From Escherichia coli (GTDB lineage: Bacteria > Pseudomonadota > Gammaproteobacteria > Enterobacterales > Enterobacteriaceae), in assembly GCF_013315695.1 (NCBI RefSeq), contig NZ_CP054353.1: 64,000 bases of DNA; one strand, written 5' to 3'. Of this stretch, positions 53,701 through 56,700 are shown piece by piece. Position numbers: made by a program. The first letter of the stretch is position 1, and each line of letters opens with the position of its first letter.

Positions 53701-56700
53701 GGGTTGCATCTGGAAAAATTAGAGACACTGAATGTATTCGGTGTACGTGCCGATTACATGGCAACCTTTAAACAATACCTGGAAGATGAAGGGATTACGC
53801 CAAGTGACGAGATCCTTGAGCTGAATTTTGAAACTCGGCCAAATATGCCAGCAACCAGGCTTAAAACACTTAAGCTCAAAGATGGTTATAAAGATAATCA
53901 AAGACTCGGCTTTAAACGTGTCTATTTTCCCGAATTGTATGAAGTTCCTGCTGATTTTCAGGGGAAAATTAAGCAGCCGCATATTAAGCTGGACCTATAC
54001 CCGAAACTTGAGTCGATTGATACCAGCAGAAAAGGGGAAAATACTCCGGTTAACGTGCGTAATGAAGCGAAGTTAGATTATAAAATCATTAGTGCGTTTG
54101 ATTTTGATCGGCTTTATCTCGCCATTCAGAATTATAAACTACAACGCGGCTGGTCAAATTTACGTGTGGATAAACAACGTTTGATCGACTTTTGTACCGG
54201 TAAGACAAAGATCGGAAATAGTTGGTATACCCTTTTGATTCCAGCTTCAGAACTTGAGATTAAGCAATATGCAGATATTGCTAAGCAGGAAGATATTATG
54301 CTTCGTCTGCTGACTGATTATACTGATCGCTTTTACAACACATTGAAAAATGCTTATGAAGGTCAGTTTTATGAAGTCACGCAGGTGAAAGAAGATGATC
54401 CTGGTATGATCAAAATGTACCATTTCGAGATCGAAGAAACTGATGATGGGTTGGCATATGCCAGTCGGCTGGAACAATTACAACAATTGGTCATCGACGG
54501 CGAAATCGGTAAAGCAAAATCCTGGAGTGCATCCGGGATGGTTGCTATTACCTTTGATAAACATCTCTATTATCCACTTCTTTCGATTGAAAAAAATGCC
54601 AACATACCGCTAAAAATGCGACCGGCAGCACTGGGTGCATCAAGTGAGATTACTTTTGTCCATGATCTTCAGTCTTTTGTTGATTCGACAAAAGGGCAGA
54701 AAATTATTGGTGATAAAAGTTTATATCTGCTAAGAAATGCGGATTCTAAAAATAGAGGCCTGGGCTTTGCTACTGCGGGTAATTTTTATCCGGATTTCTT
54801 ATTGTGGTTAGTCGATGATAAAAGTGGTAAACAATGGTTAAGTCTTATTGATCCAAAAGGCATCCGCAATCTTAATCTTGATGATCCAAAGTTCGGATTA
54901 TATAAAGAAATCAAGAATCTTGAACATAAATTATCGGATGATAACTTATCATTAAGTGCATTTATTGTTTCTGAAACTTGTTATGTTGACTTAGTAAACG
55001 TACCTGATTCAAAAGAGAATCTGGAAGCCAGAAATGTGCTTTTTATTGAGGATACTGGTCCATTGTATCTGGAGAAATTATTCAGTAAGATGGTTAGCGA
55101 GTAAATAAATATGATTCTGCTCCATATCTCTGTGAGATATGGAGCAGATATTATCGCCAATGTGCAGGAATAATTAAGTCAAACGATTTTGCTGCATATT
55201 CAAGCATTTTTATTATTTCCCTGTGTCGTTCCTGGTCGAAAGACTGTCCATTTTTTCTACACTCTATAATCCCTTGTAATTCTTTTAGGTTAAACATATC
55301 AAGAAGATATAAATTTTTCCAGGTTGGTTGCCCGAAGAGGTTATAGACTGTTTCCGTAGCATCTCGTTCACTTGCTAATCTTTTCTCTCCTTCTATTCTT
55401 TCAAAAAATATTTCAGCTGTTTCTTTATCATCATAAGTATTTAATAATTTCATTATGATTTCCCTGATTAATGAATTGATATCACGATAATTATATCATG
55501 AATAGATGTAAATTTACTATATATATAAATTAGTGTACAATTCAACATACCAATTTTTTTTAATTTGTAATGTCGATTGGTTAATAATTGGATTCTCTTA
55601 TAATGAATATATATTTACTCTGACTAGAATATTTGTAAAAGTATTTTATATTGAGATTTTAAAATTGATTTGTGGCTATGTACTCATAAATAATACTTTC
55701 GGTGTCAGAAAATACTTTATCTATTACATTTAAAATCCTAGGTGAAAGATATATAATGGCTACCTCACCCCCTAAAAAACTCTTTCCGATGCCACTCTAC
55801 AACCCCTCAAAAGGGTAATTTTTACGCACCTGTGGCAACGCAATAATTTTTCCGTCAAAATCCCAGAATGACCTCTCAATGATCTCTCCGCCGTTTACCG
55901 CATCCAATACCAGTACCCGCATATTTTCATCCAGGCCAATCGTTCCTTTATCAAAGGCTTTATGATGTATCGCGCAAAGCGCCAAGCCATTGGGAATTTC
56001 ACAAGGGCCACCATGTTGTTTCCATTTTATATGTGTCGCTTCCAGTGAGACGGTGGAGTTGCCGTAACAAATATTAAAGCTACATATTGCGCACTGGTAG
56101 TTATAAGCGCGTAATACATGTTTGCGAAATAATGGGTCACGCTGCTTACGGATTTGCTGGAGAGCAAAAAAAGGCTCGTCAGCGATTTACTGGAAGCCAT
56201 TGATATCCCTGGCAGTGAAATAATTGCGATCATGCTCGCAAATTTTCTGCTGTTCAAGCCTGCAAGCGAAGATATATTACCTTGATCTCATATGTTTTTT
56301 TACTTCCTGTGTGCCCTAATTGCCATGCGATGTTGCACCGACGCAAACCGCCGTTTACGCCGGAGGAGTTAAAAGCGCTGATGGATGCGAATAAATCAAA
56401 TTAATGAACGCTCACCTTTCGCGCCAAAACCGCAAAATTGCTTTTACAAACCTGTCAGAAATAATTCCCCGACGGGCTGCCGCGCTGAAATGACTGCTTC
56501 GCAGTGCCGTCGTCCAGTTCTCCGGTGACCGGTACGCTGAACCGTAATATCCCGTGCTTAAATCGTCCGGATCTTCATCAGGCGCGTTCGTCAGTCCTCT
56601 TTCACCTTGTTGCTGGAAGTCGATGAAAATAATATTGGCTAAAACATTATTTTGATAATTGCCATAAATCGCTTCATACGCATGAGGGAAATTTTCTTTC

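Follow-up and report, generated by a model that had tools for sequence, protein, structure and literature searches.

The 3' end of a defence-like operon in Escherichia coli is followed by a long perfect inverted repeat, and the locus raises the question of what such a dyad does between two convergent genes. The first-pass annotation of the window (the whole stretch of 64,000 nt that was analysed) described a perfect 14-bp repeat with a tgt loop at 55117-55147, and suggested that it might be a bidirectional terminator, a protein-binding dyad or a recombination site. The sequence is exactly as described, with CTGCTCCATATCTC (55117-55130) and GAGATATGGAGCAG (55134-55147) on either side of tgt (55131-55133). 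One further outer pair is present, as T55116 pairs with A55148, and each arm is therefore 15 bp long. The left arm, TCTGCTCCATATCTC, assigned from sequence and conservation, spans 55116-55130 and contains an invariant core, CCATATCT, at 55122-55129; the right arm, GAGATATGGAGCAGA, spans 55134-55148. Neither the arms nor the TGT loop are assigned to a strand. The reading that we favour, with a probability of roughly 0.65, is that the dyad is an ordinary RNA stem-loop which fixes the shared 3' ends of two convergent transcription units and does so without a canonical U-tract.

The repeat lies between two convergent stop codons, as had been stated, in a spacer of 46 nt that is mostly filled by the 33-nt hairpin. 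The stem begins 11 nt after the TAA of the plus-strand gene (55102-55104) and 2 nt after the TAA of the minus-strand gene (55153-55151). The plus-strand genes justify the label of a defence-like operon. The first encodes a SNF2-family helicase (45705-48596), for which DrmD is the best PADLOC model (4e-199). It is followed by a type III-like N6/N4 DNA methyltransferase (48602-51721; PADLOC MTase_III, 1552 bits), the start of which is placed at about 48617 in RefSeq, and by a type III restriction-enzyme-like helicase (51724-55104; PADLOC REase_III, 2306 bits), the last gene of the operon.

The facing gene, on the minus strand at 55151-55453, encodes a protein of 100 amino acids and accompanies the system as a conserved partner in convergent orientation. 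A Shine-Dalgarno-like AGGGA lies 9 nt ahead of its ATG, and two promoter-like sites, recognized by consensus matches only, are located upstream at 55484-55545 on the same strand (TTTACA-17-TATCGT and TTGAAT-18-TATAGT). Neither Pfam nor PADLOC places the protein in a family, and it matches no DNA-binding fold. The gene co-occurs with the defence system in at least 12 taxa, the convergent layout is kept in all 12 of the orthologous junctions that have the small gene, and the distance from its stop to the stem is 2-4 nt in every ortholog examined. The anatomy of the locus is corrected accordingly: the defence module consists of four genes rather than three, the fourth being this orphan gene that faces the other three, and the dyad lies within the module. 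No description of a named system combining SNF2, type III Mod/Res and a small gene was found in the literature.

A stem of this length is not a product of chance, as in 300 sequences simulated from a first-order Markov model of the window the longest perfect stem with a loop of 3-8 nt averaged 9.1 ± 0.9 bp and reached 12 bp at most. The analytic expectation for a stem of at least 15 bp at the local composition is 6e-4 per 64 kb. The predicted RNA fold is very stable on either strand (-28.6 kcal/mol on the plus strand, z = -5.4; -29.8 kcal/mol on the minus strand, z = -6.4), and none of 200 shuffled sequences folded as well. The corresponding DNA hairpin has a fold energy of -15.6 kcal/mol (z = -7.5). 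The window also holds a second perfect hairpin, of 17 bp, at 30425-30464, so that the dyad is not the only one.

The inverted repeat is conserved. It occurs in 187 of 5426 complete E. coli genomes, once per genome and always at the convergent junction; a second 'place' reported by BLAST is the palindrome matching both strands. Strains 042, E24377A and NCTC86 are among the carriers. A metagenome scan anchored on the core plus CCAATG returned 12 matches at the same junction and two chance matches, with no new context. A homologous hairpin is found in eight further enterobacterial genera or species, belonging to Serratia, Yersinia, Pectobacterium, Cronobacter, Pantoea, Salmonella and Klebsiella. 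Of the cells in the alignment of these hairpins 97.9% are paired, and both sides have changed in 6 of the 15 pairs. The observed covariation score was reached by none of 500 shuffles, slid controls gave 31-45% pairing, and RNAalifold independently predicts the same helix. One stem pair, 55120/55144, forms an allelic series within E. coli, from C-G through T.G to T-A, the T.G intermediate being a G.U wobble in the plus-strand RNA. At flanking synonymous sites, identity between the E. coli lineage and other Enterobacterales is only about 50-55%, and an unconstrained spacer would therefore have lost the hairpin.

Change is unevenly distributed along the stem. Across all 13 sequences the inner 8 bp of the arms, CCATATCT / AGATATGG, are constant apart from one mismatch in the Salmonella/Klebsiella type, whereas five of the six outer pairs have been replaced (Fisher p about 0.01 for the inner-versus-outer contrast, calculated by hand). 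An inner segment that is invariant in sequence is not strictly required by a pure pairing constraint. Among the single-sided variants, three give U.G in the plus-strand RNA and one or two give C.A at the outermost position, numbers too few to show which strand's RNA is selected.

Beyond the Enterobacterales the junction persists with other structures. In Psychrobacter it carries a canonical bidirectional terminator, AAAAAGGGG-aagctc-CCCCTTTTT, and in a gammaproteobacterial MAG a hairpin GAAGGGCT-gaaa-AGCCCTTC, both unrelated in sequence to the enterobacterial dyad. The homologous junctions of Arsukibacterium and Rheinheimera have weak hairpins only, and a hairpin is therefore not indispensable to the system. 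The dyad motif is absent from all four of these systems, despite small proteins that are equally related. That distant homologues have unrelated hairpins in this position points to selection for a structure there. Conservation at homologous junctions, which had been put forward as a check on the dyad, is thus found across the Enterobacterales, but gives way to unrelated hairpins further afield and belongs to a position inside the module rather than at its border.

The sequences that follow the stem are less typical of a terminator. The T-tracts had been called weak on the plus strand (TATTATCGCC) and modest on the minus strand (ATCATATTTATTT), and this description holds. No U run of about 7-9 nt lies directly 3' of the stem, the tails being UAUUAUCGCC on the plus strand and AUCAUAUUUAUUU on the minus strand. 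The latter derives from the A/T-rich spacer ATAAATATGAT (55105-55115), the complement of which forms an interrupted U-rich tail, AUCAUAUUUAU, in the minus-strand RNA. For the E. coli dyad the U-tail scores about 1.1 on the minus strand and no more than about 2 on the plus strand; scores range from 0.06 to 2.0 over both strands of all orthologs with a homologous hairpin, on a scale where U8 scores about 5; examples are CAUCAUAACC on the plus strand and, in Salmonella, AAGAAUGG on the minus strand. The classical d-score of d'Aubenton-Carafa was negative throughout, even for the textbook-looking terminator of Psychrobacter; this calibration was distrusted and only the U-tail component is therefore used, descriptively. 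The minus-strand RNA has a further feature, a rut-like stretch rich in C and poor in G (55036-55115) that forms the first 80 nt past the hairpin. Its C/G ratio, 2.71, ranks at the 99th percentile of the window or higher. On the plus strand the ratio is 1.08-1.64 over the first 160 nt and rises to 2.7-2.8 only at +201 to +320.

These features suggest how the locus may work. The stem-loop would be common to the plus-strand SNF2-methyltransferase-restriction operon and to the minus-strand gene for the 100-aa protein; the perfection of the arms allows either RNA to form this 15-bp hairpin directly after its own stop codon. The hairpin would fix the 3' ends of both RNAs: RNA polymerase may be paused or stopped between the two genes, after which the structure would block 3'-5' exonucleases, and each unit would be kept from antisense transcription into the other. 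Lacking a U-tract, the hairpin probably cannot release polymerase alone. Help could come from head-on or trailing polymerase collisions, as at the bidirectional terminators that separate convergent genes in E. coli, or from Rho acting just downstream, with subsequent trimming back to the hairpin. The bidirectional terminator of the first-pass annotation survives as the best-supported class, with its convergent stops, its position and pairing conserved across genera and the unrelated hairpins of distant homologues, but without a usable U-tract in any ortholog.

One alternative is a self-sufficient Rho-independent terminator, at least for the minus-strand gene, in which the hairpin and a U-rich tail release polymerase unaided. 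A stable stem does follow shortly after each stop, as in a canonical terminator, and the minus strand, alone of the two, passes a simple and lenient terminator scan (15 pairs, 7 of them G-C, tail ATCATATTTA). In Psychrobacter, moreover, the bidirectional terminator at this junction is fully canonical. We nevertheless consider this explanation unlikely, since the U-tail of the E. coli dyad is interrupted and scores poorly, no ortholog with a homologous hairpin has a better tail, and the stem is long with an A/T-rich centre, unlike the G+C-rich stems of typical terminators. The want of a good U-tract in the orthologs makes the U-tract-less 3'-end stem-loops of E. coli a better fit than a canonical intrinsic terminator. 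A different challenge comes from the loop, which has been reverse-complemented at least three times. It reads ACA, the reverse complement of TGT, in four E. coli genomes, and the 4-nt loops of other genera occur in both orientations (ACCT/AGGT in Yersinia and Pantoea, ATTT/AAAT in Serratia and Cronobacter); 2-3 simultaneous substitutions would otherwise be needed each time. This is a signature of template switching, which is documented to homogenize arms, invert spacers and yield compensatory changes (PMC8794818; PMC8604942). Template-switch events at the DNA level therefore do occur at the dyad and weaken the argument from covariation: together with the C-G / T.G / T-A series, the loop inversions indicate that covariation in a perfect palindrome may be partly mutational rather than purely the result of RNA selection. 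The palindrome might in the extreme be functionless, kept perfect by intra-strand template switching in replication with covariation as a by-product. That extreme seems improbable to us, because homogenization accounts for the perfection of the arms and not for their persistence, and the hairpin has stayed in a spacer of 46-50 nt while nearby synonymous sites neared saturation.

The remaining explanations place the function in the DNA or in specific recognition. As a double-stranded dyad, the repeat could be bound by a dimeric protein, either the 100-aa product or, with the two half-sites head to head, the restriction/modification enzyme itself, and so regulate or insulate the system. Retention of the inner 8 bp, at a junction where most outer pairs have been replaced and flanking synonymous identity is about 50%, agrees with such binding, although the inner pairs of a long helix would in any case be expected to evolve more slowly than its fraying ends. 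The half-sites are spaced by 5 nt in E. coli and by 6 nt elsewhere, the site lies between two stop codons and outside any promoter, and no cognate protein could be matched to it, the small protein having neither a family nor a DNA-binding fold to its name. The core 8-mer has three matches in the window against 1.7 expected, two of which are the dyad itself, the dyad is not seen at other E. coli loci, and the distant systems lack the motif. The earlier suggestion of a protein-binding dyad thus retains its invariant inner 8 bp but is opposed by the spacing and the non-promoter position, and we regard it as quite improbable. Rather more speculative is the idea that the core, CCATATCT-N5/6-AGATATGG, is a specific recognition element coupling the 100-aa gene to the operon; the orphan small protein could bind it, as a hairpin in the RNA or as a dyad in the DNA, or it could be a pair of the enzyme's own recognition sites placed head to head. 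If this were true, the SNF2 / type III-like defence module of four genes would be regulated through the hairpin, which would then be more than a passive terminator. Least probable is a recombination or attachment site marking the edge of a mobile defence cassette. The dyad does lie near the right end of a leuX-type island, and in Yersinia, Pectobacterium, Cronobacter and Pantoea a phage-type integrase gene is located about 75-90 bp past the small gene. However, the variable DNA (integrase, IS and other defence genes) begins only after the 100-aa gene; as this gene travels with the system, the cassette-edge reading fails. Partial E. coli copies break at IS1/IS66 insertions, elsewhere than the dyad, and the dyad is single-copy in each genome, with no second copy at the other end of the operon or in the window. 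An attC-like site was rejected, as GTTRRRY / RYYYAAC cores are absent beside the stem when it is read from the sequence.

The favoured 3'-end stem-loop can be compared with several known classes of element. A search of Rfam over 54000-57000, at a permissive threshold, gave no match. The dyad resembles the REP/BIME elements in being palindromic, extragenic and located in the 3' untranslated spacer of a convergent gene pair, but it is single-copy and locus-specific and has no sequence relation to REP. A dispersed repeat (REP/BIME or MITE ends) was rejected, with one locus per genome in 187 genomes and no other copy in the window. Template-switch quasipalindromes (PMC8794818, PMC8604942, PMC7202029) share with it the perfect arms, the double arm changes and the repeatedly inverted spacer; they represent a mutational mechanism, however, and not a function, and do not explain why the hairpin is retained at its position. 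The canonical bidirectional intrinsic terminator, with its A-tract, G+C stem and T-tract, resembles the dyad in position and symmetry, whereas the enterobacterial hairpin lacks the A-tract/T-tract pair and has a longer stem with an A/T-rich centre.

Closer parallels are found among hairpins that act without a U-tract. Rho-terminated transcripts can end in stable stem-loops that are not followed by U-rich sequence and have rut sites just downstream (Dar & Sorek 2018, PMC6061677). The dyad is similarly stable, without a U-rich stretch, and on the minus strand the high C/G ratio of 2.71 follows it directly; on the plus strand, by contrast, the rut-like signal is weak over the first 160 nt. E. coli also has bidirectional terminators between convergent genes, likewise described as hairpin-encoding and unlike intrinsic terminators (Ju et al. 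2019, summarized by Wang, Watters, Ju & Liu, bioRxiv 10.1101/2022.10.23.513370); in that collision model it is the hairpin that determines the site of pausing and collision of the converging polymerases. The dyad has the same short spacer between a convergent pair, a predicted hairpin in both directions and no U-tract, and differs in that its stem, with 15 perfect bp, is among the longer ones of this class. Taken by itself the dyad matters little, being one more 3'-end stem-loop between convergent genes. As a natural U-tract-less hairpin kept across genera, it could nevertheless be a test case for distinguishing the collision model from that of Rho plus trimming.

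The repeat CTGCTCCATATCTC-tgt-GAGATATGGAGCAG, placed by the first-pass annotation at 55117-55147, matches the sequence exactly, and its arms are 15 bp each, one more than reported, since T55116 pairs with A55148. The dyad (arms 55116-55130 and 55134-55148) lies, as described, between two convergent stops. The + strand ORF (51724..55104) ends in a TAA at 55102-55104, 11 nt ahead of the stem, and the - strand ORF (55151..55453) has its stop at 55153-55151, 2 nt ahead of it; the hairpin therefore occupies 33 of the 46 nt of convergent spacer. The 15-bp dyad is not a product of chance. 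The longest perfect stem (loop 3-8 nt) in simulated windows (n=300, first-order Markov, modelled on the window) was 9.1 ± 0.9 bp with a maximum of 12, and the analytic expectation for stems of at least 15 bp is 6e-4 per 64 kb. The region folds to -28.6 kcal/mol (z -5.4) as + strand RNA, -29.8 (z -6.4) as - strand RNA and -15.6 kcal/mol (z -7.5) as DNA. A longer perfect hairpin of the same style, TTCATCACCGATATTCA-tacatc-TGAATATCGGTGATGAA at 30425-30464 (17 bp, loop 6), lies between the convergent ORFs 29585..30202 (+) and 30524..32077 (-) with no U-tract on either side; it is not among the 25 longest listed by the repeat finder.

The window belongs to the E. coli chromosome. In it lies the right end of a leuX-type island, with Ag43, YeeR and the CbtA/YeeU toxin-antitoxin genes, adjoining nanS-nanM-nanC and fimB-fimE-fimA. 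The 100%-identical RefSeq record NZ_OZ547117.1 gives fimB (window 60752-61237) and fimA (62909-63463) as pseudogenes interrupted by internal stops, and nanS (56826-57392) as truncated; the fimB ORF in the window is 161 aa. The label 'defence-like' given to the operon is borne out by profile matches in all three genes: a DrmD-like SNF2 helicase (PADLOC 4e-199), an MTase_III (1552 bits) and an REase_III (2306 bits), in agreement with the Pfam domains SNF2-rel_dom, N6_N4_Mtase and ResIII. This triad is kept out to an alphaproteobacterium. The SNF2 and methyltransferase genes are set apart by an insertion-like stretch of about 1.9 kb at two distant homologous loci (L012 2551-4425, L015 2560-4434), where the DNA is extra.

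The facing 100-aa gene (55151-55453, -) matched no Pfam or PADLOC family; it probably forms a fourth component of the system. In convergent orientation, it follows the restriction gene after 47-50 nt in Serratia, two Yersinia species, Pectobacterium, Cronobacter, Pantoea, Salmonella, Klebsiella aerogenes and one metagenome contig; in Psychrobacter, Arsukibacterium, Rheinheimera and a gammaproteobacterial MAG the distance is 30-36 nt. In Rheinheimera a reading frame runs about 550 nt past the restriction-gene match, ahead of the small gene (L015 10972-11524). Where restriction proteins share 82-89% identity, the small proteins share only about 60%, and they conserve the motifs GEKRLASERD, YNLFG and PxHW; their family accounts for no more than 63 representative clusters among 1.84 billion proteins. 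AF2 models the protein with confidence (pLDDT 95.8) as beta-alpha-beta-beta followed by three helices. A comparison with the PDB gave no fold match, and no known DNA- or RNA-binding fold. The gene's own promoter-like sites and a plausible Shine-Dalgarno sequence make convergent transcription into the spacer plausible. Between an upstream integrase or IS gene and the small gene, a second hairpin, e.g. TCCGGGTA...TACCCGGA, is found in Serratia, Yersinia and Pectobacterium (L019 ~6310-6335; equivalent positions in L021 and L024), which suggests that the small gene is transcribed as a separate unit.

The DNA past the small gene varies by locus (integrase with lptF/G, IS elements, PLD/AAA_11 helicase), and in E. 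coli consists of remnants of a phosphorothioate-sensing HNH endonuclease. Since the small gene travels with the system and variable DNA follows only after it, the dyad is internal to a four-gene module whose fourth member is this orphan gene. Breaks in partial matches to a 1.1-kb query fall at IS1 or IS66 insertions elsewhere, none at the dyad, and the proposal that it marks a cassette edge is thus not supported. A dispersed repeat was also rejected: among 5426 complete E. coli genomes, 187 carry the dyad, each at one locus (49-nt query; a second 'place' arises in each genome because a palindrome hits both strands), and it has no further copy within the 64-kb window and no Rfam match. It is neither repeat nor border. 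Just past the small gene, at 55765-56404, are decayed defence genes: a fragment of an HNH endonuclease, and a restriction endonuclease of the phosphorothioate-DNA-binding (SBD-HNH) type that is frameshifted and truncated. Strain F6326-C1 has the endonuclease intact, at 873 bp (L004 4167-5039).

Within E. coli, stem variation is confined to the pair 55120/55144, which is C-G, the window's own allele, in about 139 genomes, T-A in about 45, and T.G in strains A37 and GF130 and one metagenome contig. In + strand RNA the T.G intermediate pairs as a G.U wobble; in - strand RNA it is a C.A mismatch. The T-A allele is also present in L011 (USKA01000072.1, an 'uncultured Streptococcus sp.' MAG), whose protein is 98-99% identical to the E. 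coli restriction gene product; this contig probably stems from E. coli through mis-binning or contamination. The hairpins of the different enterobacterial genera are clearly homologous: they retain the inner part, CCATATCT(Y)...(R)AGATATGG, and the outer part covaries (CTGCT/AGCAG, CAGTA/TACTG, CTTGCC/GGCAAG). Standard pairs fill 97.9% of cells, with both-sided changes in 6 of 15 pairs (13 sequences); none of 500 shuffles scored as high for covariation, slid controls paired at only 31-45%, and RNAalifold independently recovers the same 15-pair helix. In the genes on both sides, the E. coli lineage agrees with the others at only about 50-55% of synonymous third positions, so an unconstrained spacer would have lost the structure. 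More distant homologues do not share the dyad at their junctions. Psychrobacter has the unrelated AAAAAGGGG-aagctc-CCCCTTTTT, which, unlike the E. coli dyad, is a textbook bidirectional intrinsic terminator; the gammaproteobacterial MAG has the unrelated GAAGGGCT-gaaa-AGCCCTTC, and Arsukibacterium and Rheinheimera have weak structures only.

Part of this apparent compensation may be mutational in origin. In several lineages the loop (window 55131-55133; L003 6531-6533; columns 45-48 of alignment A3) is reverse-complemented while arms and flanks are unchanged: TGT vs ACA in E. coli, where ACA is carried by ECamp083, D8 and two FDAARGOS strains (four complete genomes in all) and by one metagenome contig; ACCT in Y. 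enterocolitica vs AGGT in Y. ruckeri and Pantoea; and ATTT in Serratia, Salmonella and Klebsiella vs AAAT in Cronobacter. These amount to at least three independent loop inversions; without inversion, each would need two to three simultaneous substitutions. Replication template switching at short inverted repeats is documented to leave such a footprint, an inverted spacer together with homogenised arms (PMC8604942, PMC8794818), and the covariation is therefore weaker as proof of selection on RNA. Template switching nevertheless explains neither the persistence of the hairpin over deep divergence nor the unrelated hairpins at the same junction in other taxa. A hairpin kept in place while its sequence is replaced points to terminator-type behaviour rather than a specific protein site. 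The inner pairs are nearly fixed (1 of 9 replaced, against 5 of 6 outer pairs; Fisher's exact test by hand, p ~0.01), as a sequence-specific recognition element would be, but lineages differ by 1 nt in their half-site spacing, the site is outside any promoter, other systems that are equally related lack the motif, and the small-protein model resembles no known nucleic acid-binding fold. A role of the core in specific recognition is thus very improbable; on a mundane reading, the inner pairs are fixed since mismatches in mid-helix would be costlier than at the fraying end of a long helix.

The original interpretation is thus partly supported: of its three readings, the terminator holds, though not in its canonical form, the cassette edge is not supported and the protein-binding dyad is unlikely. 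The tails beyond the stem, UAUUAUCGCC (+) and AUCAUAUUUAUUU (-) in E. coli, have no U-tract on either strand, and those of other genera (CAUCAUAACC on +; GUUUAAAA or AAGAAUGG on -) are no better or poorer still; weighted U-tail scores run from 0.06 to 2.0 in all orthologs with a homologous hairpin, vs about 5 for eight U. The dyad fits two other described classes of E. coli 3' element better. Bidirectional terminators of convergent genes encode hairpins that "do not resemble intrinsic terminators" and are Rho-independent; polymerases pause at the hairpin, and transcription ends when they collide head-on or from behind (bioRxiv 10.1101/2022.10.23.513370). The other class comprises stable stem-loops with no U-rich stretch behind them, which shield the 3' ends left by trimming after Rho has terminated the transcript and have rut sites close downstream (PMC6061677). 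The likeness to the latter is favoured for the small gene, as the first 80 nt of - strand RNA past the hairpin have a C/G of 2.71 (at least the 99th percentile of the window); on the + strand the ratio is weak, 1.1-1.6 over 160 nt and 2.7-2.8 further on. Under either class the hairpin would determine 3' ends common to both convergent transcripts, a reading given a probability of roughly 0.65. The dyad would then be a U-tract-less 3'-end stem-loop between convergent genes, an already known class.
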